Of a DNA stretch of 64,000 nt, positions 1,067 through 36,916 are shown piece by piece. The notes beneath the pieces were generated by a model that was not told the origin of the DNA, made no database searches, and saw nothing but the letters and a program-made list of their open reading frames with translations. Origin of the DNA: Trichoplax sp. H2 (Eukaryota); contig NOWV01000167.1 in NCBI GenBank assembly GCA_003344405.1, positions 1 to 64,000 of the forward strand. Reading direction: 5' to 3'. Both the position numbers and the translations under genes were made by a program. Each line of letters begins with the position of its first letter. Within the stretch, counting starts at the first letter, position 1.

Positions 1067-1122
1067 ACAGAAAATATAGGTATCGCTAGTATTCGGAAGA
1101 CATCGGATCGTTTAAACGTCAT

Positions 1123-5944: not shown

Positions 5945-6270
5945 ACTGAAACAATAAGGACAGCGAAAGAGGAAAAAATTGATGAATAAACGATGGAGAA
6001 CTTACGACAATTGCCGGTATAAGTAGATGCTACAATTATCGGTGTGTTGAATAGATCGCATATATGTGTTTAAAAGTGACAATAATTGGCATACTTCTGA
6101 TTTATATTTTTATTTGGCAATCTCATTTTTTTAGCTATCAATTGTCTCTAATAAATTATGTAGTGTATTCCCTGTGGAAATCTATTCTAGGTTATACTCT
6201 TATCGGCTTATTATTTTTTCATTACCTGATACGGTTACTTATTAGGGATAGCAAAATTAAAATATTAATT
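5945..6270 (+). pseudogene. Heavily decayed BBOX exon-1 remnant
   Basis: AACAATAAGGACAGC and ATAAACGATGGAGAACTTAC match exon 1 of copy A (AACAATAAAGACAGC; ATAAACGATGGCGAACATAC). Similarity is patchy only. Confidence 0.45.
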
Positions 6271-7399: not shown

Positions 7400-8469
7400 A
7401 GCTGAACACCCGATTGTTCCGTAATTGCATTGCCTAATAATGAATTACGAGATAAGTAACTAAGTTATTGAATCTATTTGAAGAATAAGTTGCAAGTTTA
7501 AAATCACGATCTTATTATTATCTTATTATTATTATTATTAGTATTAGAGCATGAATACAATTTAAAAACTTAAGCTATTCGAAATATTGCAATATATACT
7601 TTTATTATTAAATCAAATGTATCAACCAATATTATTACAATGTTGAGTTATTCCGCTTTGGCTAACTGAAATTATCAGAAAAATATGTTATAAATTTATA
7701 GGATATGATTACAATAGAAAAATTTAAAAGTGATGTAACACGTGTAAAGGTGTCACGGCATCATTCACCATACTGAGTTAGATTAATTAATTAACTATTT
7801 TCATTTATTAGAAATTGAGATGTTTATATGGCAGTGGATTGTGTTGCGGTGTTTGTTAGTAGGGTAATAAATCATAGTTGAGAAATCTCCTGTGTGAGGT
7901 TCAGAGTAAATAACAAATATCTGAGAAAGTATATAAAGCCTTAGATAATGTCATGTATATGGAGAGATATAGAATAAACTGTATTAATAGTTGGTTATCT
8001 TAGTAAAATTCTTTGTCTCATTTACTGGTGTAAACGGTTAAGCCAGGATCGACCACAGAAGCGTAGTTTCTAACCTCACGAAGTTAGTGATCCTTGACGG
8101 AAAAATAATTCTAGGAATCGCTGATTTAGTGTGAGGGCTTAACCGTACTTAGTAAAAGGTTTATGTAGTTTTAATAGAGAAGATTCAGTATCACAAACGT
8201 GGTTGCGACAAAAGGTTGCACTGTATTAATGTTCTACTATGAATCTACATAAAGACATAGATTATCATACAGTTTAAGACGCAACCTGGAATCTTGATTT
8301 CTATCGATAATTTTCGTGTCTTGCATGATAGGACAGCTTTTGATGTGTCTCCAGATAATTTCAGGCATTCAGAAAGTGTGCATATTGATTAGTATGCAGC
8401 AACATCTTACATGAGAGTATTGGAGAAGCAGCTTGACATAAAGTAAATTATAAAACTCCTAACATTTAG
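7400..8469 (+). pseudogene. Truncated BBOX paralog: end of exon 3, intron 3 and internally deleted exon 4
   Basis: Aligns by eye to 11988-12701 including the intron. Contains DNFRVLHDRTAF and ends CCTAACATTTAG. Has stop codons, a deletion and an LTR insertion. Confidence 0.85.
7751..8210. mobile_element. Solo LTR-like insertion (460 bp) in BBOX remnant intron
   Basis: TGTCAC...GCGACA ends with TSD AAAGG (7746-7750, 8211-8215). Absent from the homologous intron at about 12300-12330. Confidence 0.85.
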
Positions 8470-8519
8470 TTTATCAGTTTTAATGACCAGAATAGTGTGT
8501 TGAGTAAGCATTAATAAAT

Positions 8520-8930
8520 CCATGCAACTTGCGAGATTTGCAGATTGGATAGCATATCTTCGCAAGACATGTTATGAATAAGTCAAGCTAAATATGACCA
8601 TTCGTGATTAATTAAGTAGTATTATTAGTCTATAGTAAATGATGATAGAGTTACAATTCTTCTGAAAGTAAAATTACGCCTAAAATATCCATTTAACCGC
8701 TAAATACGGCGATATGTATAGCAACTCATGGATAAATTTTAAATCTACGAATACACGCAATTTTCGATCTCCAAATCAAAGGTATTATTAACTACCTAAT
8801 TTATCCATTACGTTTATAGCTCATCATTTTAAGTGCATACCAAAGGCGACGATGTTACAACTATTGCCTACAAAAGTAGAGAACTAGCTATGCATAATGA
8901 TCAGGTGTATTACGCTAACTTTCCAGAATA
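8520..8930 (+). pseudogene. BBOX remnant: end of exon 1, intron 1 and exon 2
   Basis: AGCATATCTTCGCAAGACATGTTAT and AAAGGCGACGATGTTACAACTATTGCCTACAAA...GCTATGCATAATGAT match copy A 3143-3520. Both splice donors are mutated and HTD has become HND. Confidence 0.75.
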
Positions 8931-10238
8931 ATAACAAATTATATTAATAATTGCTATCATTTTCGTTTAACTAATACGGAACTAATTGAATAATATTTGA
9001 GCACCGATTCAAACAATAATTTCTACGCCATATTTATTATTTAATTAAAATACTTCACTCCTGTAGATATGTAATTCTTAAGTAATGTAATTTTAACACA
9101 GTAAATAAGTTACTTAATCAAGATTTAAAGTAGATTTTAAAATCTAACTATACCATTGTATGCTAAAATCGAGGGGTTGTAGTAAATCTACTTATAATAA
9201 AGTTTTTTCATACAGTGATGGAGCTATTTAGATTCCTACATCCTCGTATAACGTACTGGTACTGCGTGTACTGTAAGATACTAAAGTGTTATTGCAAGAT
9301 TTTACCAGGGATATGATCAATTAATTTTAACATTAACATTAAGATCTTCCAGTTTATCACATGCCACTGTTAACTGTAATCGATTATAGTAGAATAATGC
9401 CTGATCAATACTATTATGGACTTTATAAATTAGATGGTTCTGCAACATTGCATTCGAGCGGTCAAATAAGGATGCGATCGTCAATGCATCACATAAAATA
9501 CTGTACACTGTTTCATCATGGCAGCCATCACCTACAATTACTCTATTAAGTGCAGTGGAATACTCTACAGGAAGTCACATCACGCTTTACTTTATGTTAC
9601 AATTACCTTTTTAAAGCTTATCACTATTGTAATTATCTGAAATTAATAAAATTGATATGGACAGTGGGTACTTGCACCGTACTGAAAATCTATATTCTAA
9701 TATTACTACTGCTAATAATTATATAACGAAATTTATAAGCAAATGCATTCGGTAACAAAAGTAAGAATAGCGAGAACAGAGTCCGACTCAGCTGTGTACC
9801 GGTATCCTCATAGGAATACAACTTATCATTTATTGGCGACAAAGCACGGCTAAGTGTGTAAGGTCAGCTATATACGAATCCATATCCGTAGTACCCCAAC
9901 TACTTTAATTAAGCATACAGAATATATTGTGTGGACAATAAAGTTACTAAATTATATTGTTTATGAATCACATTGCATCTAATTATGTATTGTAGATATA
10001 GTCTTTACAAACAATAATTTACTTTGTGGATAAGCAACATAATTCATGACAATCATTACAATCCCACTTTTTCTGTAAATTATTAAAAACACGGATGTCA
10101 AGTAAAAGTCGTTCTTCTATATTTCACTTTTCGCTATCAGTTAGTCTCGTCAACATTCTAACTCTTTGTTTATTACAAGATTAATAGTTGTATCGAGTAC
10201 TCACACTTCGATATCAAAGATTAACGTAAGTAATTATC

Positions 10239-12701
10239 ATGGTCTCTTTCTCAGTAATTAACAGTCTGCTGTCTCGACGTGCGGTTAAATATTCCTCTTC
10301 GATCGTACTTCGACGCCCATATTGGTTATCGTCTAAATTGTATTATTCTATACAAGTCGAAAATCGAGTTCAAGATAAGTTAGTATCTGTAAAGTGGGGT
10401 GATGGTAAAATTACAGATTATCCTCATGTTTATCTTCGCGATAATTGTTGATGTCCGCCTTGTTTCGATCCTCAAGCGCAACAACGTATCATCTCGAATC
10501 CTATCTATCATAACTACGCTAATGCAACAGTAAAGACAGCTTGTATGAACGAGAATAAGGATAAATTACATCTAGAATGGATAAACGACGGCGAGCATAC
10601 GTCTAGTGTGTTTGAATTAGATTGGTTAAAAGCTCATCGATTTACTGGGGATGACGAAAAGGATGTACATCCAATTAAAAGACAGTTATGGGGTAGCGAA
10701 ATACAACACGACATACCGCAATTCGATTTTGATCGGATCTTAAACGATAAATCAGAATTGTATGGATGGCTACGATGTGTAATGGAAAGGGGTATTGCGC
10801 TAATAGTCGGCTTACCTAAAAGAGTCGGTCAAGTAGAGAAAGTTGCAGCAAAAATAGGTCATCTTCGCGAAACGGTTTATGGGTAAGAATGAATACAACT
10901 AGCGTTATCTATATAGTATAAAATTGACAAAAGAAGATTCTGTTTACTTCTATACGCTGTATTATTATAAAATTCGCATTTGCTGTGTTACAAATAGCAT
11001 GCTATTTTTCATTTTAATGCTCAACACATTTTCGTAGTTCATAATATAGCTACCTACGTATACGTAATACGTATGTATTTGATAAATTACTAAACCGTAT
11101 CATTCCAATCTTTAGATACACCTTTCATAACCAAAGTAAAGGTGACCAAGCAACAACTCTTGCCTATAGAAGCGGGGGGCTAGCATTGCATACTGATTAT
11201 ACCTATTACGACAACATTCCTGGGGTAACCATAATTTATAAAGAATTCTTACTTTTTGCCTGCCTTGATAATACGAATGTGAATATTAGTTTCTCTACAT
11301 TCTTTATCAATATTACGCTAGAATTATTCTTGAATCAATAAACTTATCTGTAAGAGACAGATTTGAGCATGATTTATTAGAGTGAGTACAGTAGAAAATG
11401 CACGAAAATTTAAACGTATTTGTGTTTAAATCAAGTAATAGCGAAACTTGACCTAAGCGATATCGCATTCCACGCCTATGTTAGAAAAAAAATTATTGAT
11501 ATTCGCATACAGGCATTATTTAGTGCTTTTGCAGAATTGATCTGACATCGTACTCTGTATATGTGGTGGCGTCATAATGACTGATATTTTATTTACGCTT
11601 TCAAGATAAAATCACGTAAAAATCATGTAATAACTAATTAAGAATTGAACTACTAAGTGACTATACTCTTAATTAGAAAAGGAATTAATATCAGCTTCTT
11701 AACTTGTAAATCGACTTATAGCTTAGTTATTGATTAATTACTGATAGGTATATCGACTAACTTGTATCTTGCTAGCGTTAACTAGCTATTTATTGATTTG
11801 TATGAAATAGATATTCATGCTCCATTGTATAACAGCAGCTAATGAAGGAGGCGAGAGCCAATTTACGGATGGATTTAAAGCTGTTGAGCAATTGAGGGCC
11901 AGCCATCCTAAATATTTTAAAACGTTGACAGAATTTTCTGTTCATCACAAAGATATTGGTACTGACTCTTATAATTTTAATCTTATGGCTAAACACCCAA
12001 TTATCCGGTAATTGCATTGTCTAACAATGAATCATGATATAAGGAACTAGTTATTGAATTAACTTGATAAATAAGTTGCAAGTTTAAAATTATGATCTTT
12101 CTGTACTAGTGCCTAAATACGATATTAAAACTTAAGCTATTCGATATATCACAAAGTATATTTTATTCTTAAATCAGATTTATTAGCCAATAGTATTGCA
12201 CAGCTGAGTTATTCTGCTTTGGCTCACTGAAATTATCTAGAATATTTTATAAAAGTAACTTATTGGATATGATTATAATAGAAAAGTTTAAAAGTGATCT
12301 AATACGTATAAAGATTATATTGTATTAATATTCTGCTATGAATCTACATAAATATATAGATTAAATGAAAATGGAGACCTTAACAAATTTGTTATGCTGA
12401 TCATGCTCGAACTTCAAGAATAGATGTGCCTCATTATAAATTGACAGACTTTTATAATGCTATGACGCAATTTTTAAGATATGCTTACAGTCCGGCTAAT
12501 ATTATACAATTTAAGCTACAACCTGGAACCTTGGTTTCTGTCGATAATTTTCGTGTTTTGCATGGTAGAACGGCTTTTAATGTGTCTCCAGATAATTTTA
12601 GGCATACTGAAGGTGGACACGCTGATTGGGATGGAGCAACATCTTGTATGAGAGTACTAGAGAAAGAACTTAACATAGATTATAGAAGTCCTAACATTTA
12701 G
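10239..12701 (+). pseudogene. BBOX1: BBOX1-like copy B, disabled; exons 10239-10882, 11116-11224, 11811-12007, 12360-12701
   Basis: Full exon set with ALHTDY and DNFRVLHGR. In-frame TGA at 10449-10451 and a 1-nt deletion at about 12382 (CTTAACAAATTTGT vs expected CTT AAA CAA ATT TGT) that shifts the frame. Confidence 0.85.
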
Positions 12702-13436
12702 TTTGTTAGCTTTAATAGCTAGAATAGAGTGTTGTTTGGGTATTAATAACTCTATATGGATTCTAACTTAATATTATAAGATTATTCATGATTTCTTGCT
12801 ATTTAAAACTTTTAAATCCTAGGTTGTCAAGTATATTTTATCGATCGGAAGTAGATTTTTAGTAAAATTTTTTATTAAAATATCTGGTTTAGCTTAACGC
12901 ATACGTTATGTACTTATTACGATAAGCACGGTTTAATTCAACGGTATCGGCTATTTGCTAACATTAATAGTTATATGATTGGTATAATCTCTAAGTTATA
13001 TATGTTTGTCAGCGCTACTAGATTTACTTTATTTTTCTATCGAGGTATGCAACACATTTTTGTTATAATAGCAGATGATGTTTGAAACCGTTTTACTAAT
13101 TAATAGTAATTTCGGTGTTATTAGGCAATGTATGTTTTTTCTATCGTCAGTTCACTATATCTATCAGATTTGTTGAATGCTTCTATACGATGTAGAAATA
13201 CACGATTGACTGTGATGATATTTTTGTTATTAATAAAATTATATAAACTAGATAGATTAATTGCATTATATTCCTACGCTTCGTTCGGAGTTAATTCGAA
13301 TCTAAGATAAATCAAAGCAACTTCTATGATTTGATTATATGCTTTATTTATTATTTATATAATACATCGCATTCGTAAGAATTTATACAATTATTGCTGT
13401 AGCATTAATCGGAAAATTATAGAAAGAAAATTAATT

Positions 13437-14344
13437 TAATAATTATTTAAGAATAACACGATAGACTAGAATTTGGCCAATCTGTAAGAAGATTATAACA
13501 TGATATCCTTATTTCGCGTATTATCATTAACTATCAGTAAATTCGAGCATATACCGAAAGTTGAAAGTTCTGTTATAGTAGCATTATGATATTTATGCCA
13601 TTACTTATACTCTTAAACTTTAATTAGTGAATAGGTAGCATAAATACTGCCTATGTTAATAATTGGATGCAGAGATTTCATAGGAAGGTTATTACAAGGT
13701 TGTAGTAGTCAATGATGGAAATTATGTCGAGTTTCCGATATTTAAGTCCAACCACAATAGTAAGAGAGGGCAATATGACAGTATTAAAACTTACAAGTAG
13801 TAATACTAATAAGATTAATAATTATAATTTGGCATTTTCAAAAGAAGCCTTTTGTAATGTTATTCAACAGGTATTAAACAAACGAGGATATTTCGGTAAT
13901 TTTTTTCTATTTATAAATCAATTTGCGATAGCAGATGTTCTAATTACACAGAAAAAATAGGTATCGCTAGTATTGGAAGATATCGGATCGTTTAAACGTC
14001 ATTATATCATATGCACGTATGCATCATTATTAGTGGTTTAAAGTATATTAAAAATCTACGATAGTATAATAGAGAAGAATGCAGCCTTATCTGATCCTTG
14101 ACCTATACATATTCATGGTCAAGTTATTGGAAAAATAATAAAAATATAGTTATGCTGTATTAATTGCATTTACCTTGCTATAATAGAATTAGCGTTAGAT
14201 AGATAGTAGGGAGACAGATAAAATGCAATTTATTAATGATAATTATATATGTATAATTGGCAATTACGGTATGCAAGATCAGGTAATTACTAATAGGAAG
14301 ATATTTGCTTAATATAACTTATTACAACTCCTAGCATCCTCGAC
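13437..14344. repeat. Segmental duplication copy B (empty-site version of 1-2395)
   Basis: Near-identical to 1-2395 minus the two LTR insertions. Confidence 0.95.
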
Positions 14345-15344
14345 TATTTTATACTTCATTTTTGATTTAACGATATCAGTATTCTGAAAACAATGGCTTA
14401 CTCCGTAATTTCATTGTAAATAAAATTTGAGCTAATTATGACCAAGACGATCAGTGACTATTATTCTCTACTTTCATTGATAGGGATCTAGCTTAGGTAT
14501 TATAGAAATTGTACTTTAATTTCTTTACCCAACTAATATTCACACTAGCAGTAATAGATGACGAAAATAACACTAACTGTAGGTTTACTAACAGAATTCC
14601 ACGATTCGTGAGTTATGTGAACGATCAGCATGGTTTTTACTATGTAGAAATATGGAAAAATATTGATGTGATAACGCCTCTACTTCTGTATCGTATACTG
14701 TATTCTACCCTTTGGTACTACTTCATAGCGAATGATAATATCCTTTCACGCATAGCTTTTGATATTCGAATAGCTATTACCTTTATGATGGTACGAACCT
14801 GAGATATGGTTGTATATTCATTTACTGACTCTAATTGCAATTTGAGTAATAGACACTGGGAGAATTTTTGCTATGCCATATTAGAAGCGCTGGAACATAA
14901 AAAGCTACGGATGAAACAGCAGCGTGCGGTAATCGTCTTCACAATAAATGGTATGGTGGAATGATGAATGTTTATTAATAATTAGATTTATTCCTGATAA
15001 ATGACATCAATTCGCTGCCACATGTTTATGATGAAACTTGGTTTAAATCGTATAAATCGGTAATATTATCTTTATGCAGGTTGATTGCGCCAAAAAAAGT
15101 CGCCATTTATATATATGTTACGGCCAACATATATATATACGCTTTACAACGTCAATTGTCACCCCCTTCTTTTCAACTTTGCGCTGTAACTGCTGTACAG
15201 TACAGTACATACTTTCTGTACATAAATATATATGACACATATACGCATGAGCTATCACATATAATAACATTAGCTAAAAATTTTCATTTTATCTATTTGT
15301 TATACCTTAAAGCTGCCACTACAGTCGATTCTACGGAAGTAACA

Positions 15345-18300
15345 ATGAGTTCGTTACTAAGATCAAGGAATTTCAATTTGGTAAAAATGCACATTTGCAA
15401 TACATCAAGCTCACTTATAAACCAATATAAGTTACCATTTCTTCCAAAGGTATGCTATTCGGTGCAAGTTAAAAATGATTTAAAACAAAAATGCGTCAAT
15501 TTAACTTGGGAGGATGGTATAACGACACGATATCCTCATCTATATTTACGAGATCACTGTCGCTGTTCAGCATGCTACGATTCTATCTCAGAACAACGTT
15601 TCTTATTCAATTGTATCTATGACAATTACAAAGACAAGATTGCCAAAGAGGTTCGCATCTGTGATAAGGGTGAAAGGCTACAAATTGATTGGTATGAGGA
15701 TGAAAAGCATCCTTATTCTGAATTTAAATTAGATTGGCTCAGGAAATATCGCTTCTCGACGGAAGAAGATGAAATGGTAGCTAGCAATATCTACCATCGT
15801 GATCGGCAAATATGGGGTAGCGAGATGCTAAATAAGATACCCCGATACGATTTCTATGCATTATTGCAAGATAAATTGGAATTATATCGATGGTTACGCT
15901 CTCTAATTAAGATTGGAATTACTATCCTTGACAATGTACCCGAAAAGCCAGGTCAAATGCATAAACTTGCCGATCGAGTTTCGTTTCTAAAATTAACCAC
16001 ATACGGGTAAGATTGATTTGTATTTTGCTTTCTACTTTGCCTATCTCCATGAGATAATGACAACTGGATGGACTTATATAGACTGCTAATATACTTGCCA
16101 ACAATTTACCGTGCTATTACAAATCGAGGCTTGTAATGAAGAATTAAAATGACAACTAATCACTCTGGGCTTACCGTTAGATTTGTTCTCCCAGATATCT
16201 GCCTACGCTACTACTATAAATACTGACGATTCTTCCATCGTCAGTAGGCCACAGTAAATCACTCGTGTGTCGTAAACAAAAATTGAATCCGCGCTTTAAA
16301 GAGTTAGACAATTTATAGAACAGTTACAAAATCGTTAGTTTTATTATTAGCACAAAGATGATATTATAAAACTGTATATAAAGTCATAGTGTAATGAAAT
16401 GAAAAGTGTAGAGATCAAGCTACAAAACTTTAACAAACTTTGATTCTACTGTCGTTGCACTCCGGTCGACTTAACGAAACTTTGACACTAAATAAAAATT
16501 GGGAAAATAATCGAACAACAATTTATTACAAAACAAGAATGGAGAGAAGTGTAAACCGAACAACCTTACAAATACTTAGCTTTAAGTATTAATAAAATAA
16601 GTGACAGACTTCAAAAACTGTCAACGGCCAAACAACCTTTCAAAAACAAGAACGTTTTAATTTACGACAATTCGACCCCGAAGGCCTTTTAAATTCAACA
16701 AGTTCTTCAAAAGAATCTTCTTCTACTCTCCCTCTCGAATTTTCTAATTGCACTATCATTTATAGGCTTCATAGAGCCGCCAGAGGTATTTAAAACTAAA
16801 TATTTACTAACCAATCGCTCTTAAGAACCGTTTTAGAAAACTACTTTGCACCATTTAAAAAAAAAAATCATTCAAAGTTCAGACACAATTTACCCTATGA
16901 TTCCCTTACAAAACACTATAAAACCAACAAGTTAGCTATAAAAAAATACGTCAAACTTCACTTGTAACATAATTTCTATCATTCATACGTTCTAAAAGTC
17001 TAAAAACCAACCTTTAAACATCAAGATTTAGTCATAAAAATAACGGTCTAACTACTTAACAATCAACACAACCTCTGCCAATTTCCATCTTATTTTCTAC
17101 TTTCCTCACTAAACTTCGCTTCCTAATGTGACTTTCATGTCCCGTCATAAAATTCCAAAGTTTCAAATTCATATTAAAAGTTTAAATTTCAAAAATCAAC
17201 TCTTACGATATTTTTCGTAAACAAACATCCAAAAATTAAAACAGGAAAATTATATCGGACATAAATCCGTCCGGTTCCGGAATCCGAATCCGAAAAATCC
17301 GGATTTTATAAAGATCACAGTAATCGCTTATCAAAAAAATTTATATGACTATTACGACTACTTTTCTGATATTAGTATCGCTGAATATTGACAGTTGATG
17401 TTTTAGCGTCAGGATGTACGGTAACTGTACGATTATAGACTACATTACAGTCCTTTATTGTCATGACTTTATTGTCATGTTATAAGTCCCCTTTCCCTAG
17501 GGATAGGGTTTTGTTACTAAGTCAAATTCAGTTATAATTTGAATAGACGATCAAACGCCCTTTCTTTAGATCAGGCAATTGCTCCAGGGCTACTTCTATA
17601 GTAATCTATATGATACCGTGTAAAGTAATGAAGAAGAAAAGATGGCGACATGATGATTTGGCAGGGTAAAATCTAAAAACACTATCACTTTCTAGGTATT
17701 TTTTATAGTAAAATAATACTAGTTACATACTAAAAGCTATAAGGGACTCTACTTTTAGTCCTTTACTACAATAGATAGCGGTAATATCCGCAAATATTGA
17801 AAGGTCTTATCCAAGAAAGTCAGATAAGTAATCATCCAAGAAAGGCACTTTGCGGATAATGTAGTATATTTAGGAATAATTCTGATGTTCTGGTAGGGTA
17901 GTATTAAGGAGATGAAATGATTTTTAGATGAGAGATCCTGCTAGTAATACTGCTACAGATACGCTAGCGGTTAGGATCTTCTGGCAATAAGTTTTGAGTC
18001 CATTCTATCAATCCGGCTAATTTAAACCCAATATTTAAAAATCTGTTAATGTAGTAAAGTGAAGTTTGTAATTGTAGGTTAAGACTAAAGCAATCCATCA
18101 CCTTTGAATAAAATTAATTAAGTTATAAATGACTCAGGCTACTAGTTTTATTTATTATTTATACGAGTATCAACGTAGATAATTAATTGATTTACCGTCC
18201 TAATTTAATTTATCAAGGCCCACATTTCAAGTTGAAAGTAGATCTGTTGCTAGTAATGTCGCATTTACCAACGCTGGTCTGGCAATGCATACCGATCTTG

Positions 18301-19095
18301 CATTTATAACCTATGTTCCTGGAGTAAGTTTTCGAAATCTAATAAATTAATTAACGAATTTTTTTTCAATCAAATTTTTTTAATACAGAATGATAATAAT
18401 TTTGCCATACGATAATTTTTATTTAAATAAACTAGGTACAAATGCTGCATTGCATCTCAAAGGCCGGTCAAGGCGGTGAAAGTCGATTTGTTGACGGCTT
18501 TCGAGCTGCTACTCAATTAAAGGAAAAATATCCTGAAGCATTCAATCTACTAGTTAAATATCCAATCCGATACTATGATGTCGGAAAGGATTATATTACT
18601 TTTAATCAGTTGACACAACATCCAATTATCAGGTATAGGATATCTAAGCGTATTTTTTAATAACCAAGAAGGCAATGGATAGATTCTTATTTTAAAATAT
18701 CGATACTAAAGAGAATTTAGATCTTTGAAACTTATTTTGTATGTTGCATTAGATTACATGATAATGGAGAGCTAAAGCAAATCGTTTATGCTGACCATCC
18801 ACGAAGTCCGTTAATGGGTGTTCCACAGAATAAAGTCATCGATCTTTACGATGCTATGAGTAAATTTTTAGAATGTGTTTATGATCCATCCAATATGATA
18901 TATACCTTGTTGGAATCGGGCAGCATGATGGTTCTTGATAATTTTAGAGTGATGCATGGAAGAGCCTCTTATGAAGTCAAACCAGGAAGTTGTCGGCACT
19001 TGGAAGGTGGTTACCTTGACTGGGACGAGGTCACATCACGTATGCGTGTCCTTGAACGAGAACTCAACATTGATTACACTTCAGCAATAGTTTAA
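15345..19095 (+). CDS. BBOX1: Gamma-butyrobetaine dioxygenase-like (Fe/2OG), intact copy C; exons 15345-16006, 18218-18323, 18436-18632, 18753-19095
   Basis: Motifs LRDHCRCSAC, SNVAFTNAGLAMHTD, VQMLHC, GGESRFVDGF, DNFRVMHGR and LEGGYLDWD; uninterrupted frame across GT-AG introns. Confidence 0.9.
16132..16328 (+). mobile_element. Short LTR-like dispersed repeat in BBOX copy C intron 1 (relative at 56564-56760)
   Basis: TGTAA...TTACA ends; TATAAA followed by hairpin TACTGACGAT-n6-ATCGTCAGTA (16221-16246). No clean TSD seen. Confidence 0.5.
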
Positions 19096-20598
19096 GCTAA
19101 CAAGTAAAACAAATTCTAGTAAATGGCTACGATATCATTCTCAATTTCCTTTCCTTTTTAAAATTTCGATGATGGATGCGCATTATCATAGCAATATCTT
19201 CCTGATTGCTTTAGCGTATAATTTGAGATCAATGAAAGTACAAATCGTAAATCAACTTCATACCTTGCTGGAAGTTTGGTAAACCTTTTGTCGAATAATT
19301 TTGGCATTTTTTGTTGTATACTATGGGCAGCAAATGGTCAGCTCAACGTGTTGATCAACGTATATGTTATGTAATCTTACAAAATCTGAAAATAATGCAG
19401 TTAAAATTTTAGAATGAAATGCTTGACTTTATTTCTTTGTCGAGGTACACAATTTACAACGATTGCTTATGAACGTATTATCATTCAGTGAACGAAATTT
19501 ATGCAGCATTTCCGTCTGGAGTTACTTTTGCAATCACTATTAACGGTCCATTATAGTCATCATCATATCCTACAGTAATGCGTTACTTCTTCATCTCAGC
19601 ATCACAATCTTTGTATTAATTAGTCCGTAGCACAACATATCACTTATAAATAGCAACTGTTAGAGCATTAATGATGTTATGATGATCTATGTTACACATA
19701 TCTATCGTTCCTAAGAATTGTTCGATTTAAATATAATATTATAATGGTCTTTCACCATTGGCTTTTAGTGGTTTGATTTTGAAAACATTTTAGAATGATA
19801 CGGATATTAGTCTCAAGTTTTTAAGTTGGCAATCATTTTTTATCAATAATTAATTTATTTAACTTGAAGCATTTTACTATATTTGAAGGATAATCAAGTT
19901 ATGTATTCTTTTGTCTCTGGTGGTTGATCTTAACTTATTTCTTTTTGATCTTGAAAAGCTTTCATGTGTTTCATGCGTGTCAAGTAGTAAATTACTTCAT
20001 TAGCTTCAAGGTTGTATAATTTTGGCTATCGATTATACTAAAATTACCCTAATATGCGTAGGTTGATTGATAGTTTAAAATTCAATCATTAGCAGTTTAA
20101 TGACGAGCATGCAAAGATGGTAGAAAAATTAACAGAGTTTACTGATATTCGATACAGTAGAAGTTTACATATCATTTCTGTACACCTGAAATGCTACATG
20201 CGGCTATCAATCACAACCGGTAGTTCCTTCAGTGCTCGTTAAGCCTGGGTGCATCGAGTAGTCTATGTCGTCAACATAGTTACAATATTCCATTTTTATT
20301 TCTTTAATAATTTATCAATTTTATATCAATGCATAGTTAAACAACTGTAATTTGCCCTAAAATTGAACTTTCCATTGAAAGACAATTACTTCTTATAGAT
20401 GCAAAACTGTAGGAAACAACTAATGCAATCATAAGATACATAATTTACAAGATTAGTTATAAATGTATCTACGTAGCACGTAAGCTATCTCATAATGGCA
20501 CTTGAGTGACTATATGGCTTCGTATTGTCTTGAGTGGCAAATGAATAAGGACAAGTTTCGTCTTTAGCACAATCTATAGTAATAGTAGAGTTCGTCGA

Positions 20599-22130
<1,532 letters not shown>

Positions 22131-23099
22131 TATCTAAAATCCATTTCAAATGATTGAATTACAAATTGGCTCTATACCTTATCGCATCATCATCGCTAAC
22201 TTACGACACTAGTAGAAGACATGGATTTTAAAATTTAAATTGTACAACCTATTGCGGTTGGATAGTGAGGAACTTGTTCTTTGCGAGCAAACTTGTCCAA
22301 TTTCAAAGCTCACCAAGATTTCCAATGTAGAAATTCTTCAAGCTGCTGCAAGGCATCAAAATGAAGTTATCACGTTTACAGGCTAGTTTTAGTACCGAGT
22401 AAGTAATGCGTTACTTACTGTACTCTGATTTCCCAGCTACTGTATTACACCGTACAGCATATTCAATTCCCTTTTCAAGGCTCTACAGTCCTTTGCATCC
22501 AGTACAATACTGTACTGTACAGTATGATACTGTACGGTGGCCCAATCGGGATAGCTTACAGTACAGCGCAGAATTAGTACTGTACGGTACAGATTCTATT
22601 CTGTAAAGTTGTCCCTTTTGGCCCAGTGTACAGTACTGTACACTGAGTGTACAGTACAGTGTAGTACTGTACGCCTGTACGGTACTGTATGATCATTGAT
22701 CACCCGATTAAGCGGCATCGGGTAAAATCGGGTTCGGTTCACAACTGCCGTTGCTATGCTAATACAGTACTCTATACGGTACGGCACCAGCCAGGGTCCT
22801 TTGTCGGGCACCCGATTAAACAGCATCGGGTATAATCGGGTTCGGTTCAGAAAATACTACAATAAACTGCTGTCGCTATGCTACGGATTACGTTGTTGGA
22901 ATATTACAAACTGCCGTCGCTTTGCCGACTGATTATGTTCTTAGAATATTATTATACAATAAATCTTCAAAGGCGACTCAGCCTTGCATCGCTATGCTGA
23001 CGGGTTACGTTGTTATAATATTACAAACTCTCGTTACTTTACCGACGAATTATGTTCTATAGGCGTTAATTGCGATAGGAAATTGTCCGCTACATCAGG

Positions 23100-23303
23100 T
23101 GACGGTGATGAGAAAATGCCAAATTAAGGACCCCGGTACGAGCTCATGGATAAGCGTCACTTGTCTACGGTATATAAGACGAGTTATGTATGTCCTAGAA
23201 CAGTTCTGTTACCAGCCTCTCTGTGTGTGATTCTTGTGAATAAGCCGAATAAAAATTTTGATACTTTTCAAAGTGTAAAGACGAATCACTGAGTTTCCAT
23301 TCA
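23100..23303 (+). mobile_element. Possible short LTR-like segment (allelic copy at about 24039-24242)
   Basis: TG start, TATATAAG, AATAAA and CATTCA end occur in LTR order; no TSD found. Confidence 0.25.
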
Positions 23304-23589
23304 TTAAGGAAAACAGTACTGTGCTGTACAATGTACAGTACAGTACATAGTCTAGTACAGTACTGTCCTACCATTTTTACTACAGTACTACAGTATACTG
23401 TACTGTACACTGTACACTGTACTGTACAATATGTAACATAATGAATTATCATATCAAACGTACTGTATAGCTCCGAACCTAGTCACACATACATTCACCA
23501 ACAGTGTACGAAGAATTAGAAGGAAAGTGTACAGCAGATGAATAAATAAATGCCTCTGTATATGCTGAGNNNNNNNNNNNNNNNNNNNN

Positions 23590-24960
23590 GTCCAATTTCA
23601 AAGCTCACCAAGATTTCCAATGTAGAAATTCTTCAAGCTGCTGCCAGGCATCAAAATGAAGTTATCACGTTTACAGGCTAGTTTTAGTACCGAATCAGTA
23701 ATGCGTTACTTACTGTACTCTGATTTCCCAGCTACTGTTTCACACCGTACAGTACAGCATATTCAATTCCCTTTTCAAGGCTCTACAGTCTACAGTCCTT
23801 TGCATCCAGCACCGTCCAGTACAATACTGTACCGTGGCCCAAACGGGATAGCTTTACAGCGCAGAATCAGTACAGTACAGTACAGTATACACTGTACAGT
23901 ACTGTACACTGTACACTGTACAGTACAGTTCGTCGACGTCCGATCTGACAACGAACGTACAGTACATACCGAACGTCCAAAATCGAACGTCCGTTGGACG
24001 TCCAATCGCTCGACGTCTACAGCACTAGATACATCAGGTGACGGTGATGAGAAAATGCCAAATTAAGGACCCTGGTACGAGCTCATGGATAAGCGTCACT
24101 TGTCTACGGTATATAAGATGAGTTATGTATGTCCTAGAACAGTTCTGTTACTAGCCTCTCTGTGTGTGATTCTTGTGAATAAGCCGAATAAAAATTTTGA
24201 TACTTTTCAAAGTGTAAAGACGAATCACTGAGTTTCCATTCATTAAGGAAAACAGTACTGTACTGTACTGTACTGTGCTGTTGTACAATGTACAGTACAG
24301 TACTGTACATAGTCTAGTACAGTACAGTACATACAGTACTGTACTGTACGGTCCTACCATTTTTACTACAGTACTACACTGTACTGTACACTGTACAATA
24401 TGTAACATAATGAATTATCATATCAAACGTACTGTATAGCTCTGAACCTAGTCACACATACATTCACTAACAGTGTACGAAGAATTAGAAGGAAAGTGTA
24501 CAGTAGATGAATAAATAAATGCCTCTGTATATGCTGAGTACGCTCAGTCTGCTGTATACTTCAACCTCAACTTTCCTCTGAGTCTTCTTTTGCTTTTTCT
24601 ATCTCTAAGCTATCTTCACATGATTGGCAAATTACCGCTTTTTGTGTCACACACTGCTCATGTACTGTACACTGTACACTGTACAGTGTACAGTACAGTA
24701 AAGCCAGCTTCAGATACTAGTACTGTACTGTACATATTAATATACTGTACAGTACAGTACTGTACTGTACAGTATCTCATCCTCTACTTACAGTACAGTA
24801 CAGGACAGGACAGTACTGTATAGGAAGCATCCTATGCCAGTTTACCATCCGGTAACATTATACAGAACAACTAACTACAGCTGTAACTACAGACAATGCT
24901 GTACACAGTGTAGCCTACAGTACTCGCTACTCCGTCTTAGGAAAAGTACTGTGCACTGTA
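23590..24960. other. Probable alternative haplotype contig placed between two 20-N gaps
   Basis: Duplicates 22295-23569 and 24981-25504. The flanking contigs overlap each other identically (23421-23569 = 24981-25128), while this contig carries different SNPs. Confidence 0.85.
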
Positions 24961-25958
24961 NNNNNNNNNNNNNNNNNNNNACTGTACAATATGTAACATA
25001 ATGAATTATCATATCAAACGTACTGTATAGCTCCGAACCTAGTCACACATACATTCACCAACAGTGTACGAAGAATTAGAAGGAAAGTGTACAGCAGATG
25101 AATAAATAAATGCCTCTGTATATGCTGAGTACGCTCAGTCTGCTGTATACTTCAACCTCAACTTTCCTCTGAGTCTTCTTTTGCTTTTTCTATCTCTAAG
25201 CTATCTTCACATGATTGGCAAATTACCGCTTGTTGTGTCACACACTGCTCATGTACAGTACAGTACAGTAAAGCCAGCTTCAGATACTAGTACTGTACAT
25301 ATTAATACAGTATATCTCATCCTCTACGTACAGTACAGTACAGGACAGGACAGTGCTGTACTGTATAGGAAGCATCCTATGCCAGTTTACCATCCAGTAA
25401 CATTATACAGAACAACTAACTACAGCTGTAGCTACAGACAATGCTGTACACAGTGTATCCTACAGTACTCACTACTCCGTCTTAGGAAAAGTACTGTGCA
25501 CTGTACACTGTACCGTGGACACTCGGCTACTCCACTGCTTTTTGCATAGTTCTCATAGTAAATATTGAATTGAGTGTATCCCTGCCCCAAGCTGGTCTCT
25601 AACTCTATACAAAACATGTTATATATATTTAATTTTAGTTGAGTCATACTCGCCATGTTGTTACTTAGCACTTTTGAACTGTTTGCACTCGCAGATACGC
25701 CTGTGCCTTGTGGTACTACTGTACTCTAATCGAATGAGTTAGTAGAGTACGCACCAAAGTCCCTAACTGGCTGTAACTTCTTGAAATCTTGGCAATCACA
25801 CCGGCATTCATTTGTTAAATCTCTTCCATACAGAGCTAGAACAAGAACACAATATACAGTAACACTGTGCCCATTAGAGAATTTCATTTTTGAAGCAATA
25901 ATAAATACAAGTGAATTGAGTTGATATCATACCAAGCACAAAACATTCAGCAATCATC

Positions 25959-26757
25959 ATGTCAGGCAGCCCCGCAATGAAATTAGTCCAAAGCCTAGTA
26001 GAAAGAAGAGGAATACTTATGTTTTCTAAAACCTATTGCGGTTTTTGTACAAAGGTCAAGAGGATCTTTCAAAACATTGGCGTGCATGATGCGGAAATTC
26101 TAGAATTAGACGAGCGAGATGATGGAGACGAAATTCAAGTAGGAGCTTGAGCCAATTAAACAACTTGAATAGACTATATATCAATATTCTGTTAGGGTTA
26201 GGCTTAGGGTAGTGTAGGTACTAGGTATACTGTTACGCATGTTACGATGTATTGTATCAGCAATTAGCAAATCATACTATCCTTCATGTTAATCCAGAAT
26301 TATTTTGCAACATAAAAGTCCATGATCATGACTGACAGCTACGATACTCTATTCACTGCTTAGATAAACTTGCTCATTATAGTGGTTGTGGTCGTAAAGT
26401 AGTTTCATAACGATTGATACCACCGCTATTACTACAAAACTGTACTAAGTTCAAATTACCGCTTGCATACAATTAAACTCCAATTCAATTGTGTAATAAT
26501 TAAAGTGCGTTGCCAAAAATATGTTCAACGTAAAATACCGTCGATAGACCAGTGCATTCGCATACACACTCCAGATGCTCTCGTTTAAAATGGTCTTGAT
26601 TGGATATTTTTTCTAGAGCGCTCTATTACAATTAACAAAACAGCGGACGGTGCCTAATATCTTCATTGGTGGAAAACACATCGGTGGTTGTTCCGATATT
26701 GAGAAGATGCATGCAAATGGCAAGTTGATTTCGTTAATTCAAGCTGCTAGAAGTTAA
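25959..26757 (+). CDS. GLRX: Dithiol glutaredoxin, 106 aa; exons 25959-26138, 26617-26757
   Basis: Motifs FSKTYCGFC, ELDERDDGDEIQ|SALLQLTKQRTVPNIFIGGKHIGGCSD. Confidence 0.93.
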
Positions 26758-27644: not shown

Positions 27645-28511
27645 CTACAGCTTAATACCATATTCCTTTAACATATACTGTAAAAGTAGGTCATCTTGCT
27701 CTGCTTCAGTGAGATCTCCATGGTAACCCTAAAGTAAAAGAGCACGTCAATAATTATAATAATTGAGACGTAAGGCAATTTTTGAAAAATCTGTGCTGCT
27801 TTCTAACATATAAATATACAATAATGATCTACTACGCATTACGAATTTACGTACTAGCTTTCTGATTCTGTCTTGATATATATGATACAATATAATTGCT
27901 GCAGCAACGGAAACATTATAACTCTCTACGAAACCAACCATACTGATGCGAAAGACGTTGTCGACTAAATTCATTGCTTCTTTAGAGATACCTTCCTGCT
28001 CTGAGCCAAGTACAACGGCTGTTTTATTAGAAAAGTCGAAAGAATCCAAAGTTTTCGTTTTATTTTCAGAGCTTGTTGCAAGAATTTTGTAGCCACATGA
28101 CTTCAGTTGAGAGATACATTCTTCAGTTGATTTCCAAGACTCAATATCAATCCATTTCATTGCTCCTGCATCAGTCCTTCCGCATGTCTTCAATCGGTAT
28201 AAAGGGCTGGGTATTCTATGTGCAGTTTGAAAACCTAAAGCATCCATTGTTCTGTATATAGCTTGTTCGTTACCTTCATTTGTAATCCCTTCCAAGACAA
28301 CAGCAATACTTCTTGTTCTATTTTTTACAGCATTTGTCATTTTATCAAGTCTTTCTTTCGTGAAAGCACAAGTAAGTTTCTGTAATAACTCTTTATTGTA
28401 AGATGCATTATTAGTCAGTGTGCCAAAATCCTCAATTGTAGATTTAGAAGTTACAACAGTCAGCATATCTTTGGCCTTCGTATATCGCCTCCATAGGCTA
28501 AAATAACTCAT
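27645..28511 (-). CDS. trmH: SpoU/TrmH-family tRNA (Gm18) 2'-O-methyltransferase, bacterial-type; exons 28511-27855, 27728-27645
   Basis: Motifs RTRSIAVVLE..N..AIYRTMDALG, GAMKWIDI, AVVLGSEQEGIS and ISMVGFVESYNVSVAAAI; spliced tail GYHGDLTEAEQ. Start codon uncertain. Confidence 0.85.
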
Positions 28512-29679
28512 ATTTTCGTTGGGACTGCAAGGTATCCTTGACTTTCTGATTATCAAATTTAAATGCAAGTGATAAATGTATGTATACAAGCTTCGTATTG
28601 AAGCATCGTACAAAGTTTATCACCAATTTTTCTTAAAAGCCAGGTATGTAAGTCCAATCAACAAGTGCTATATGCGAGATTTACAATTCAGTTATTAGTA
28701 CCTAAAGAGTGTTAATACATCGAAAGAAAGCATTAAGCTTTACACAATTCCTCGTTCCATTTTGCATTGTTTATTAAAGAATAGGCTAAATAAAAATTTT
28801 TATCTTAATGTAACATAAGAATTGCAATTCCATCAATTATAGTGTAAAACTATACTATAAAGTGTGTGATACGATATTAATATTACGGTGATTTCGAAGC
28901 CTTTTTGGGTCTAAAATAAGCCGTCGACGAGCTAGTATAAGTGATACGAATGATCTTGAAGGATCATGTGAACGTAATGAATTCACCATTATACTGTACA
29001 TGTAATATGATTACATCAATGCTATTTGGAAGGCACTGATTCAAGCAAACTCATGAAGATGCAAAGCGGGACGAAGTTAGCAAATTGCAGCTCAGAATAT
29101 GCAAAAGTGACATACTGTACACTACTCGTAAAACGAAGAATAGTCAAGTAAAATATTTATGCTATCATCAATCATGGAGTACCGACTAAAGAAAGAAATT
29201 TTCATATTTATTACTTGTTGTGGAGTGGTTTGAATGCTCCGTTGCTGTTTTTCACTTTAAAGAGCACACTGCGTTGCAGCTGGAGAGTAGTCAGTACAGA
29301 GAAGAAATTGCAGCGGTCATTCCATTCGTTCATTCCAATTTAATGAATGCTGGTGCATTCTGCGTTTGTGCCTCGCTAGTATGCGTAACCGTAAGGGTAC
29401 TGTACTACTGTATGGGTACTATACCATGGACTACTCGACATACCCTTGCATCAGGAGCAACTAACAGTCCATGATTATACTAGTGTAAACAACTAAAAAT
29501 GATGCAGTTCTGTTGATAGATGATTTGATCGTAATAAATTGACAATTTTCGACATTGTGTTACTAACTTAATTCTACAATAATCAAAGCTTAAATTATTT
29601 ATAAATAATACGCGTGCATGCAGTATCAAATCACATGAATAGAGTCCAAAGTTACACTGATAATTAATTTAAATTATAA

Positions 29680-31586: not shown

Positions 31587-32737
31587 TTAGTTAGCAAAAA
31601 CTGAATTTCCAATAGCTATAGGACCTAAACGATCTATTGCTGTGTTAATGCCAAATAATGGGCTGTTTTTCTGTCTGGGATCAGCTGATTTGCGATATGT
31701 TCTCATACTTATTAGCGGTTCTCGAGCTACATCCCGGACGCCAGTATTCGGGTCGACAGTTGTTAGCAGGCATCTTTCGCAGTTTTTTACTTTACGAAAT
31801 GTGGTATCGTTAATATGATAGTATTTGTAATGGTCTTCTACATGCGGCTCTTCAGCTATGAAAAGGTGGAGAATAACACTGTTAAACCGAGCTACGCATC
31901 GTTTATGACTTATTGCTATCGTAAAAGTGAATAGACAATACTGTTGACAACTGCTGAAAATAGAGTTAAAGGTAGAGAACAAGATGGATGATACGACATA
32001 TTGCAATCTTAACGCAACTCATTACTGCACTGTAGCCAGCATCATAAACACTTACTTTCTACAATAATATTTGGTCTAAAACTTTGCATGGAGATTTGGC
32101 GGGATGATTTTGTATTTAAAACATCCAAAGACGCAGTAAAAGTCAAATGATATGGAGTCAAATCGGCAAATGCACACTGATCATTGCTTTGACCGTCCAC
32201 ACCCCAAATAGAATCATCCTTGACGTAACGGTTAGGTGTGGTATCAGGCTTAAAGAGCAACTTGAGATTAGACTTGTTCAAATATTTGGAGAACCAATCT
32301 CCGATTTCTTTGCCACAGTCGAAAGCTGTAATATTTGTTCTCCATATTTTGATCTCTTTGCTGGTAGCTCCTTCAGCCACTTCCAAAGGTACCGCAACAG
32401 GAGGCATATCAGGTGCTGTCAATTTTAACTGTCCATCCTCAATTGAAGGTTGTACAAGTGCTAGCGTCGGTTCACTGCGTAGAGTTAGAAATAAATCGTT
32501 CTCATCGATAATAATCCAACGTCTGTCCCACTTAAAACCGTCAATGTTGCAATCGGCCGCGTCGAGTTTGATACCAGCACAAGACTTGATCGGATAGATG
32601 TATAACTGTTTGACGCGTCCAATTAATTTTTGAGAAGATTTGCGAATGGTTCTATATATCAAGTATGTGGCAATCAAAGCCGCTGCTGTGATTGTTACAG
32701 TGGTTATTATTGTTGATGAATCGCGATCGCCAGCCAT
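31587..32737 (-). CDS. MTARC: Mitochondrial amidoxime-reducing component (MOSC domain); exons 32737-32056, 31855-31587
   Basis: N-terminal hydrophobic anchor; motifs IYPIKSC, DRRW, FRPNI, CERC and PLFGIN; phase-1 GT-AG intron. Confidence 0.93.
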
Positions 32738-32877
32738 GGTGTATTAATTTTTAGTTTATCTTCTGTAGTTCCGGAGTTAAGTTAGAAAGAAAGAAGGAAA
32801 AATGATGGCTAGGTAATGCTGTGGGGTGGACAAATTGTCTCCTTTAATTACAGATTAGAGATTCGCCGGTCTTGTTC

Positions 32878-33840
32878 AATACTGGTACAGTACAGTATTC
32901 TGCCACTCTGTACTGTACAGTACGATATTGGTACAGTACTGTACAGTACTGTACAGTGTACTGTACTGTACAGTACAGTACAATTCCGTACAAAGAGTAC
33001 AGTACCTACTGTACTGTACACTGTAGCAAAATCTCCTAGTTTTTGATTACTTTCACGACTACTCTCAATTGCTTTCGTTCAAGATCAACGGTGGCGAAAG
33101 ATGATTACATAACCACAAAACGCCATCAGTTAGCATACCTTATGGCTAGTTAATATATAAGATATTGAACCTTTTCTGTATCTCTTTCTATGACTTTTTA
33201 TACTATACTGTACTGCACATTGTACAATCGTGCTATACTGTGTACAGTAATGCTGTAGTAGTCGATGACTAAACGCGTTTGCATGGGATTTGTTCATATA
33301 NNNNNNNNNNNNNNNNNNNNGGTGTATTAATTTTTAGTTTATCTTCTGTAGTTCTGGAGCTAAGTTAGAAAGAAAGAAGGAAAAATGATGGCTAGGTGAT
33401 GCTGAGGGGTGGACAAATTGTCTCCTTTAATTACAGATTAGAGATTCGCCGGTCTTGTTCAATACTCGTACAGTACAGTACAGTACGATACTGGTACAGT
33501 ACAGTACAATTCCGTACAAAGAGTACAGTACCTACTGTACTGTACACTGTAGCAAAATCTCCTAGTTTTTGATTACTTTCATGACTACTCTCAATTGCTT
33601 TCGTTCAAGATCAACGGTGGCGAAAGATGATTACATAACCACAAAACGCCATCAGTTAGCATACCTTATGGCTAGTTAATATATAAGATATTGAACCTTT
33701 TCTGTATCTCTTTCTATGACTTTTTATACTATACTGTACTGCACATTGTACAATCGTGCTATACTGTGTACAGTAATGCTGTAGTAGTCGATGACTAAAC
33801 GCGTTTGCATGGGATTTGTTCATATAGTACTGCATCAACA
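32878..33840. repeat. CAGTA/CTGTA arrays upstream of mARC; two allele-like copies (32738-33300, 33321-33826) around a gap
   Basis: Duplicated flanks differ mainly in the number of pentamer units. Confidence 0.9.
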
Positions 33841-35589: not shown

Positions 35590-36740
35590 CAGTATACAGT
35601 ACTGTACTGTACACTTGTACAGTACCCTACACTACACTACAGTACAGTACAGTACTGTACATTACCGTGCATTGTGGTTCACACAGTACTGTACTGTACA
35701 CTGTACTGTACAGTACGTTCACCACAATATTATCCACTGTAGGATACAGTGGATAGTACTGTATCGTGGTCGGTGGGCTACAGTACTATCCACTGTGTTG
35801 TACAGTGTGCGTACTGTACAGTACTGCTAGGTGACATGAGCTACAGTACTGTACAGTACTGTACAGTACGTCCAGTACAGTACTATCCACTGTACTGGAC
35901 AGTACTGTGCAAAACCCAGCTGACTGCTAATTTGGAGCACCATCGCGTACAGTAGAACGTTCGATTACCGATGACCAGTACAGTTGAAATGACCAGTAGA
36001 GAAAGTCAGCCTCAACATCGCTANNNNNNNNNNNNNNNNNNNNGCTTATTGAATGTTTAATTGATATGACTAATGATCGTCGAGTAGTATTTCAATGCAG
36101 CTATGATATTTGGCTGAATTCAAATTCAAATTGCAATTATGACTAGGAAGGAGAAAGCTGCAAGCCATCAACTCACAGACAGTGCCAAACTGTCAGTATA
36201 CAGTACTGTAAAGTACGCTACACTACAGTACAGTACTGTACCGTACAGTACATTACTGTGCATTGTGGTTCATACTGTACAGTACAGTACTGTAAGGTGA
36301 CGTGAGCTACAGTACATACTGTACTGTAAGTTCATCACAATACTATCCACTGTATTCTACAGTGGATAGTATCGTGGTAGGTGGGCTACAGTACTGTACA
36401 CCCAGTATAGTACTATCCACTGTGTTGTACAGTGTGCGTACTGTACTGCTAGGTGACATGAGCTACAGTACGTCCAGTACAGTACTATCCACTGTACTGG
36501 ACAGTACTGTGCAAAACCCAGCTGGCTGCTAATTTGGAGCACCATCGCGTACAGTAGAACGTTCGATTACCGATGACCAGTACAGTTGAAATGACCAGTA
36601 GAGAAAGTCAGCCTCAACATCGCTAGTCAACTCTTTCCAGTGTTGTCCGGTAGTCACTGTCAGTACACTGTGTACTGTTAAAGTGTACAGTGTACAGTGT
36701 ACAGTACAGGACGCCAAACTGTACACTGAGTACTGTAGGC
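35590..36740. repeat. CAGTA/CTGTA arrays between divergent RAMAC-like and ubinuclein; allele-like copies 35440-36023 and 36044-36625
   Basis: Dense pentamer runs and inverted repeats, with duplicated sequence on both sides of the gap. Confidence 0.92.
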
Positions 36741-36916
36741 TCAAATGCAAAGGCCGCGCCAACTCAAAAGCCCCTTGTTACGTGATAGTGGTGTATTAGT
36801 GAATCAAGGCTGATTGGAACAGTGGATAAAATTACGTGGCCATTAGTGGATGGAATATTGCAGCAATTTTCATTTATAGAATTGCATCAAGTACTGCTGT
36901 CATTTCATTCATCAAG

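Follow-up and report, generated by a model that had tools for sequence, protein, structure and literature searches.

The arrays of CAGTA and CTGTA units in a 64,000-nucleotide stretch of Trichoplax sp. H2 DNA (contig NOWV01000167.1 of assembly GCA_003344405.1, positions 1 to 64,000; hereafter the window) are random in unit orientation and far more variable between two allele-like copies of a locus than the sequence that flanks them. These arrays are the (ACAGT)n promoter microsatellite published previously for Trichoplax (Wang 2010), and the orientation of their units supports the conclusion that they are not a simple slippage repeat. We favor, at about an even chance, the explanation that the arrays change through errors of local replication and break repair, not through transposon traffic. 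An earlier analysis made from the letters of this stretch and its open reading frames (ORFs), referred to here as the sequence-only reading, had interpreted the arrays as stacked excision footprints of Tc1/mariner elements, a mechanism that is unproven and, on the grounds of published transposon censuses, improbable.

Sequence and identity of the CAGTA/CTGTA arrays

The sequence-only reading had described the 22410-25520 region as TA followed by mixed CAG-TA and CTG-TA units with rarer variants. The sequence of this region was found to match that description, and it holds 73 TACWGTA heptamers (W, A or T). Across the window, 221 such heptamers were counted, compared to 16.9 expected under a first-order and 68.2 under a third-order Markov model, and GTACWGTAC was present 103 times against 0.6-5.7 expected. 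The heptamers form four clusters (22.4-25.5, 32.9-33.6, 35.6-36.7, and 57.6-58.1 kb), which are intergenic or lie in promoters. When 44 arrays of at least two units were tallied, 65 CAG and 55 CTG units were found together with 12 CACTG, 5 CAGTG, 2 CGG, and 1 CCG. The middle base of the 107 GTAC-to-GTAC spacings of 5 was A in 57, T in 46, G in 3, and C in 1, and GTAC pairs at a spacing of 7 carried ACT (9), AGT (4), AAT (2), or GCT (1). The unit grammar proposed earlier is upheld by these counts (central A/T in 103/107, 7-bp units present, CGG and CCG rare), and both sites used to illustrate it read as given, with six units at 24743-24774, which together make a perfect 32-bp palindrome, and one unit at 25303-25309.

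Two other features that had been put forward as signals turned out to carry little information. The parse into TA-bounded units holds but is not diagnostic, because any (ACAGT)n repeat reads as TA + (CAGTA)n, and the near-equal numbers of CAG and CTG are trivial since TACAGTA is the reverse complement of TACTGTA. The window contains 50 perfect period-5 runs of at least 12 bp, and of 100 perfect-run ends only 31 open with TA. Array ends run on with C beyond the terminal TA in 51 of 88 cases, where 18.7% would be expected (p = 4e-16), and identical rare 7-bp units are adjacent four times, compared to 0.74 times expected (p = 0.0035). Heptamers with other centers also exceed expectation in the window, at 22773-22787 and elsewhere, with 15 of TACGGTA (3-7 expected) and 8 of TACCGTA (3-4 expected). 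The "repeating ACGG" insulation motif of T. adhaerens might be a G-centered sibling of the same pentamer.

The pentamer, the animal, and the position upstream of genes all match the (ACAGT)n repeat of Wang 2010 (Biol Direct 5:18, PMC2871265), and the feature is therefore already known. As reported there, ACAGT is the motif in 78% of the 7,233 repeats of pentanucleotide type, and 54% are found no more than 1 kb upstream of a gene. Repeating ACAGT has also been associated with chromatin insulation in T. adhaerens (Chimaera paper, 2026, PMC12817080). With the repeat being the most abundant microsatellite of the genome, located at promoters and linked to chromatin insulation, its origin bears on the evolution of placozoan promoters.

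Unit orientation is random

Neighboring units in the window were of the same orientation in 39 pairs and of different orientation in 31, compared to a permutation mean of 35.1 ± 4.3 same pairs, in agreement with the earlier description of the units as freely mixed. Orientation autocorrelation reached 0.59 (p = 0.08) at lag 1 and stayed near 0.5 from lag 2 through lag 5. As a control, metagenome contigs were scanned for five or more consecutive TACWGTA units with W left free, which produced 114 loci (L001-L114). Neighboring units at these loci were of the same orientation in 1491 of 1541 pairs and different in 50, and 97 loci were pure. Under the rule used for the control, the window gave 24 same and 22 different pairs, and one haplotype alone gave 12 and 14 (Fisher p = 5e-14). 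The uniform orientation expected from simple slippage was thus not observed in the window, and its random orientation, set against near-uniform controls, indicates that simple slippage is insufficient. This supports the statement of the sequence-only reading that the arrays are not a slippage microsatellite.

A few of the metagenome loci (L066, L058, L059, L056, and L092) were orientation-mixed like the window. L066 carries a mixed block of ~55 bp in three to four copies (L066:1199-1530) as well as an ORF with a cyclin domain, and L059 consists of two paralogous units with different arrays. No transposase was identified by Pfam in eight metagenome loci with mixed arrays, for which 40 of 56 ORFs of at least 90 aa were analyzed and the 16 ORFs running through arrays were left out.

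Arrays are hypervariable between allele-like copies

Self-BLAST revealed that all duplicated stretches of the window adjoin a 20-N gap and that 23421-23569 and 24981-25129 are 100% identical over 149 bases. Given these gap borders and this identity, the most likely reading of 23590-24960 is as a second allele of a single locus, left unmerged by the assembly. What had been described as homologous copies would accordingly be, most likely, two unmerged alleles and not paralogues, each adjoining an N gap. In the simplest reading of the alignments, the piece that ends at the first gap (22295-23569) and the piece that follows the second (24981-25505) would be the first part and the continuation of haplotype 1, and the piece between the gaps (23590-24960, bounded by 23570-23589 and 24961-24980) would be the probable haplotype 2 allele, as suggested by flank comparison and by the presence of both length states in public runs. 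The first piece corresponds to the putative second allele over 22295-22592 (23590-23885, 88%) and 23091-23569 (24030-24538, 89%), while the third matches 24390-24960 at 88.6% and shares its first 149 bases with the first piece. Allele-like splits of the same kind are also the simplest reading of the N gaps at 33301 and 36024. High polymorphism, with alleles shared between H1 and H2, has been reported previously (Kamm 2018).

The non-array flanks of the allele-like copies differ at 23 of 1449 aligned bases (1.6%) and are essentially free of indels. In contrast, the number of heptamers per allele was 32 versus 40, 17 versus 10, and 23 versus 19 in the allele-like pairs, which demonstrates that the arrays are far more variable than their flanks.

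Assembled contigs from four public runs were also aligned to 23590-24960, a comparison in which rare insertions, starts, and strands are invisible. The arrays at 24611-24818 were found in at least three length states over the four runs (21 gaps in records 7 and 30, 10 in record 15, and 31 in record 23), and a 149-nt contig identical to 23761-23909, which spans a mixed array, was recovered in three independent runs (records 2, 10, and 18). Copy number cannot be read from summed contig depth, and depth ratios were not used for it. Thousands of array-bearing contigs from elsewhere matched the arrays, and the single bin without contig cover (24280-24325) carries no meaning.

Indels between copies and a proposed model of local repair

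The sequence-only reading had called for haplotypes to be aligned and their short indels classified, and the alignments within the window are a small comparison of this kind. Array differences between alleles were blocks of 5-37 bp. The earlier claim that copies differ by whole units added after a TA was true of only 5 of the 17 clean gaps. Six were tandem copies with at most one mismatch, two were of unit form without a tandem template, and nine (4, 13, 15, 17, 19, 20, 21, 24, and 37 bp) were neither unit-form nor tandem. Alongside these gaps, the alignments contain duplications of TCTACAG (7 bp) and TGT (3 bp), an imperfect duplication of 10 bp, and one difference of 4 bp. The ancestral ATTAA-TA-TA sequence, from which units were proposed to have been gained after a bare TA, is one among several equally possible alignments, and a 25-bp indel combined with a TA indel fits as well. 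In the sole case that could be polarized, a tandem triplication at 57520-58010, the gained unit was a CTG beside a CTG.

Local replication and repair fits this mixed indel spectrum and requires no transposon. Template switching at quasi-palindromes and fold-back priming in polymerase-theta end joining generate short insertions, templated in inverted or direct orientation, at microhomologies. For the arrays, the basic unit of such a process would be the near-palindromic heptamer TACWGTA, with adjacent units sharing a TA overlap. All positions of the heptamer except the middle W are self-complementary, so a free 3' end could prime in either the direct or the folded-back register. A 3' end that re-pairs in register on the same strand would produce a copy with the same W, and one that folds back, or pairs with the opposite strand via GTAC or TA microhomology, would produce a copy with the complementary W. 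Many short events of both kinds would yield orientation-scrambled, hypervariable arrays, to which microhomology deletions and small non-unit duplications may contribute, and selection or open chromatin at promoters probably retains the arrays there.

Several observations weigh against local repair as the source of the arrays. Neither of its specific signatures, an excess of palindromy and templates nearby, was seen. Hairpin energies summed over 24 arrays came to -115.3, compared to -123.8 ± 7.5 for orientation-shuffled arrays, and array palindromy is thus not in excess. Of 12 multi-unit inserts, allelic or paralogous, not one matched nearby sequence, in direct or inverted orientation, above W-randomized versions of itself (mean z -0.21), in a test for which patterns of 3 units recur by chance alone. 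The saturation of the region with units leaves both tests with little power. Simple slippage as the sole process is in contradiction with the random orientation, and point mutation is not what flips W, since G or C occupies the center in only 4/107 spacings; that fold-back or opposite-strand priming operates in Trichoplax is something we infer. The excess of isolated heptamers described below, part of which lie in plain TA tracts without a neighboring array, is also less easily explained by local copying. A separate model in which hairpin correction shapes the arrays was not supported, as the arrays are no more self-complementary than their orientation-shuffled counterparts.

Isolated heptamers and possible selection for binding sites

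Outside the clusters, 61 TACWGTA heptamers were present, compared to 13.5-20.5 expected, which corresponds to a 3- to 4.5-fold enrichment. One of these is a TACAGTA unit at 56945 inside a (TA)n tract (56937-56960). GTAC was considered as the core motif of the isolated sites and rejected, with an observed/expected ratio of ~1 for GTACW and of 3 to 4.5 for TACWGTA. A modest enrichment was observed at their flanks, where G precedes or C follows the heptamer in 37 of 122 flanks, compared to 18.7% expected.

These features would be accounted for if TACWGTA were bound by a dimeric factor for which the central base can be either A or T, with selection keeping overlapping sites at promoters and length changes arising from slippage or deletion of a pre-existing mixed array. 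We regard this explanation as unlikely. It draws on the promoter location of the arrays, the reported association of ACAGT with insulation (PMC12817080), the enrichment of isolated TACWGTA but not GTACW, and the modest preference for a preceding G or following C. Block duplications can, moreover, in principle reach any A/T pattern, and the mixed ~55-bp higher-order repeat of L066 is a block of this type. However, selection for binding sites accounts for the location of the arrays and not for the origin of their random orientation, and the allelic unit numbers (32/40, 17/10, and 23/19) are so far apart that the exact arrays are not conserved. A binding factor for TACWGTA is not known, and none is named in the available portions of the Wang 2010, Chimaera, and Kim 2025 papers.

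Tc1/mariner excision footprints as an alternative

In the proposal of the sequence-only reading, a Tc1/mariner element ending in CAG...CTG would insert and be excised, and every such cycle would leave one CWGTA unit behind as a 5-bp scar. Repair of an A:A or T:T mismatch would give the central A or T, and each scar would create a new TA (or GTAC) target at which further scars could stack. Although we consider this quite unlikely, a number of observations fit it. The canonical footprints of Sleeping Beauty are exactly TACAGTA and TACTGTA (PMC6943129), and a single unit of the arrays is identical to one letter for letter, including the A/T center, with W being A or T in 103/107. Unit orientation is random, unlike that of ordinary ACAGT arrays, and the 12 multi-unit inserts tested show no sign of being local copies. 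The isolated heptamers are enriched 3 to 4.5 times around a TACWGTA core and not around GTAC, including the one inside (TA)n at 56945, and copies of the tandem triplication differ in CWGTA units at TA-rich tracts (2 + 3 units in copy 1, none in copy 2). Two of the 17 clean gaps have footprint form without a tandem template, and three Tc1-like fragments are listed for the genome.

The elements that would have left such scars were not found. A transposase domain was present in 0/55 window ORFs of at least 75 aa (Pfam), and a search of the window for TA-CAGT...ACTG-TA elements with non-array ends returned 25 candidates, all inside clusters and none convincing, the best of them being composed of a local motif. 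No filled allele, with an element at an array TA, was seen in the allele or paralogue pairs of the window, and the loose ends of contigs from the four public runs, in which rare insertions are invisible, shared no common element end (agreement 0.36-0.43). Almost no transposons were reported in two independent published censuses of the genome. The first estimated transposons at 0.13% of the genome, with MITEs (miniature inverted-repeat transposable elements) rare, and listed 11 degenerate Mariner/Tc1 fragments, none of them active and all without inverted ends (Wang 2010, PMC2871265); in the published tables, Tc1 best hits are given for 3 of the 11. The second found 12 ORFs that pass Pfam thresholds for reverse transcriptase, integrase, or transposase (Kamm 2018).

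The number of events required also argues against excision scars. By extrapolation, 221 units in 64 kb would require ~10^5 fixed events genome-wide, with tens of events at every locus over a time in which the flanks came to differ by 1.6%, a divergence so low that the source elements should still be recognizable. Furthermore, 51 of 88 array ends overrun the TA frame and only 31 of 100 perfect-run ends start on TA, 9 of 17 clean gaps are not unit-form and are accompanied by non-unit changes of 3, 4, 7, and 10 bp in the same alignments, identical rare 7-bp units stand side by side, and the one polarizable gain copies its neighbor. Tc1-rich genomes are not known to show such arrays. A literature search for the idea that footprints build arrays returned no paper proposing it, only Sleeping Beauty methods papers and unrelated catfish "footprints", and the word "footprint" is absent from the text of Wang 2010 (PMC2871265).

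With no transposase or element in the window and 9 of 17 gaps misfitting, the stacked footprints were not demonstrated. The proposal nonetheless survives the refuting conditions that the sequence-only reading had set for it, as only 6 of 17 gaps are tandem, units are present or absent (by gain or by loss) at otherwise bare TA sites, and three Tc1-like fragments exist. Were it correct, the scrambled ACAGT arrays of placozoan promoters would record, across the genome, cut-and-paste events at TA sites that are long past or still under way. Each unit would be the scar either of a Tc1-like element or of a tamed Tc1-like transposase that acts on TA-CAG junctions, and the scars would breed targets of their own until promoters were filled. 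We see only a slim chance of this, in which the most common promoter motif of an animal would be the work of a nearly vanished transposon. Both the footprint and the fold-back repair ideas give sharp predictions for phased placozoan genomes.

One MITE candidate at 35745-35894 (146 bp, flanked on either side by TA, inverted ends 16/16) was rejected as a mobile element, as its ends consist of TATCCACTGT and array units. The TATCCACTGT sequence has nine exact copies in both orientations, all within 35731-36828, where each allele-like copy has four and one more is present; the rest of the window has none.

Allele-specific inserts and the possibility of transposon-borne arrays

At one place in the main cluster, the two putative alleles contain unrelated sequence of ~480 bp (22593-23075) and ~140 bp (23886-24029). 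The longer insert includes internal direct repeats of 44 and 59 nt and the shorter is rich in ACGTCC-type words. They may be pieces of non-autonomous transposons, for example of the Mutator elements that Kim 2025 describes at promoters. Next to the arrays, 24030-24243 showed 3 to 8 times summed contig depth, and it is matched, at 13-18 differences, by longer contigs that come from elsewhere (records 4, 5, 12, and 13); this segment looks like a low-copy dispersed repeat.

The arrays themselves could be borne by, or form the ends of, non-autonomous transposons (e.g., of Mutator type at placozoan promoters) and spread with them, which we judge very unlikely. Mutator insertions in placozoan promoters have been described, with a motif within their inverted ends (Kim 2025, PMC12221973), and in the window the alleles carry the unrelated inserts described above. 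Part of haplotype 2 lies between perfectly complementary 20-nt arms, (CAGTA)4 at 23868-23887 and (TACTG)4 at 24256-24275, and 23958-24049 reached ~40-57x the summed contig depth of unique neighbor bins in all four runs, a ratio that is not a copy number. On the other hand, the available part of the Chimaera paper (PMC12817080) ties ACGG, not ACAGT, to a transposon, arrays without such segments occur at 32885-33025 and 58053-58084, and no target duplication was seen bounding the 20-nt arms.

Location of the arrays and neighboring genes

The arrays were mapped without strand assignment, and genes were predicted solely by means of ORFs and Pfam. In the first cluster, the arrays assigned to haplotype 1 lie within 22508-22689 (mixed CAGTA/CTGTA arrays at 22508-22524, 22578-22589, 22627-22663, and 22678-22689), 23332-23428 (including two adjacent CACTG 7-bp units at 23396-23426), and 25252-25513 (arrays at 25252-25270, 25328-25343, and 25493-25513 and the single TACAGTA at 25303-25309). 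Those assigned to haplotype 2 comprise a composite array at 23868-23929, in which (CAG)3 is followed by CACTG CAG CTG CACTG CACTG CAG, a group within 24252-24397 (24252-24276, 24289-24349, and 24375-24397), and a group within 24663-24803 that includes the six-unit array at 24743-24774. This cluster stops ~450 bp short of a predicted glutaredoxin exon on the plus strand (25920-26147; Pfam PF00462, E = 1.6e-07; ATG near 25959).

The second cluster (32885-33551), with an N gap at 33301-33320 between two allele-like copies, lies ~150 bp upstream of the predicted start of a MOSC gene, an exon of which was identified by Pfam at 32045-32743 on the minus strand. The third (35595-36709) is likewise divided into two allele-like copies by an N gap (36024-36043) and carries the TATCCACTGT sequence. 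The fourth (57520-58114) consists of the tandem triplication at 57520-58010, detected by self-BLAST, followed by arrays at 58053-58114. The triplicated unit of ~170 bp is repeated at ~87% identity with each copy closing in a short array, and copy 2 is without a 30-bp internal piece. Just downstream of this cluster, an 80-bp unit is present three times in tandem at 58395-58647 and a 100-bp unit twice at 59402-59604 (~42% GC).

Elsewhere in the window, a single-exon ORF on the minus strand (27750-28616) encodes a predicted SpoU/TrmH-type methyltransferase and, across 76% of its length, shows 100% identity with a protein of Trichoplax sp. H2. Placozoan-like matches to it are 63-64% identical, next relatives reach ~43% or below, and the named ones are bacterial; this ORF may represent an old gene transfer. 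The first part of the window (1-19100) contains three tandem genes resembling gamma-butyrobetaine hydroxylase (GBBH_N + TauD). Within it, 1-515 matches 13437-13952 (99%) and 2053-2397 matches 13998-14344 (96%), which suggests either that a duplication took place very recently or that this is a further assembly duplicate.

Comparison with known systems

Events such as template switching and fold-back priming in polymerase-theta end joining are of the kind that we infer for the window, and for this repeat or this animal they are undocumented. The arrays differ from known footprints of the Tc1 family, which are single scars at former element sites, whereas the window has arrays of 3-9 stacked units at promoters. 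Mutator ends share the promoter niche (PMC12221973), and repeated allele-specific segments lie between the window arrays; however, the motif linked to these ends is of ACGG type (PMC12817080), and the arrays are not annotated as that element in the portions of these papers available.

The metagenome (ACAGT)n loci share the pentamer and the parse into TA + (CAGTA)n with the window but are of a single orientation in 97 of 114 cases, whereas the window arrays are mixed. The closest likeness is to the repeat of Wang 2010 (PMC2871265), with which the window arrays share the host Trichoplax, the pentamer ACAGT, and the position upstream of genes; tandem perfect runs of at least 12 bp are present in the window, and arrays lie well within the ~1-5 kb upstream of genes, ~150 bp from the MOSC start and ~450 bp from the glutaredoxin exon. 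The counts in that study are of perfect repeats, and the motif is regarded there as a possible binding site for a factor. Its available text makes no mention of mixed orientation or allelic hypervariability, both of which are seen in the window arrays. It is this combination of coin-toss orientation and many-unit differences between alleles that we consider worth keeping, and it asks for a process beyond textbook slippage.

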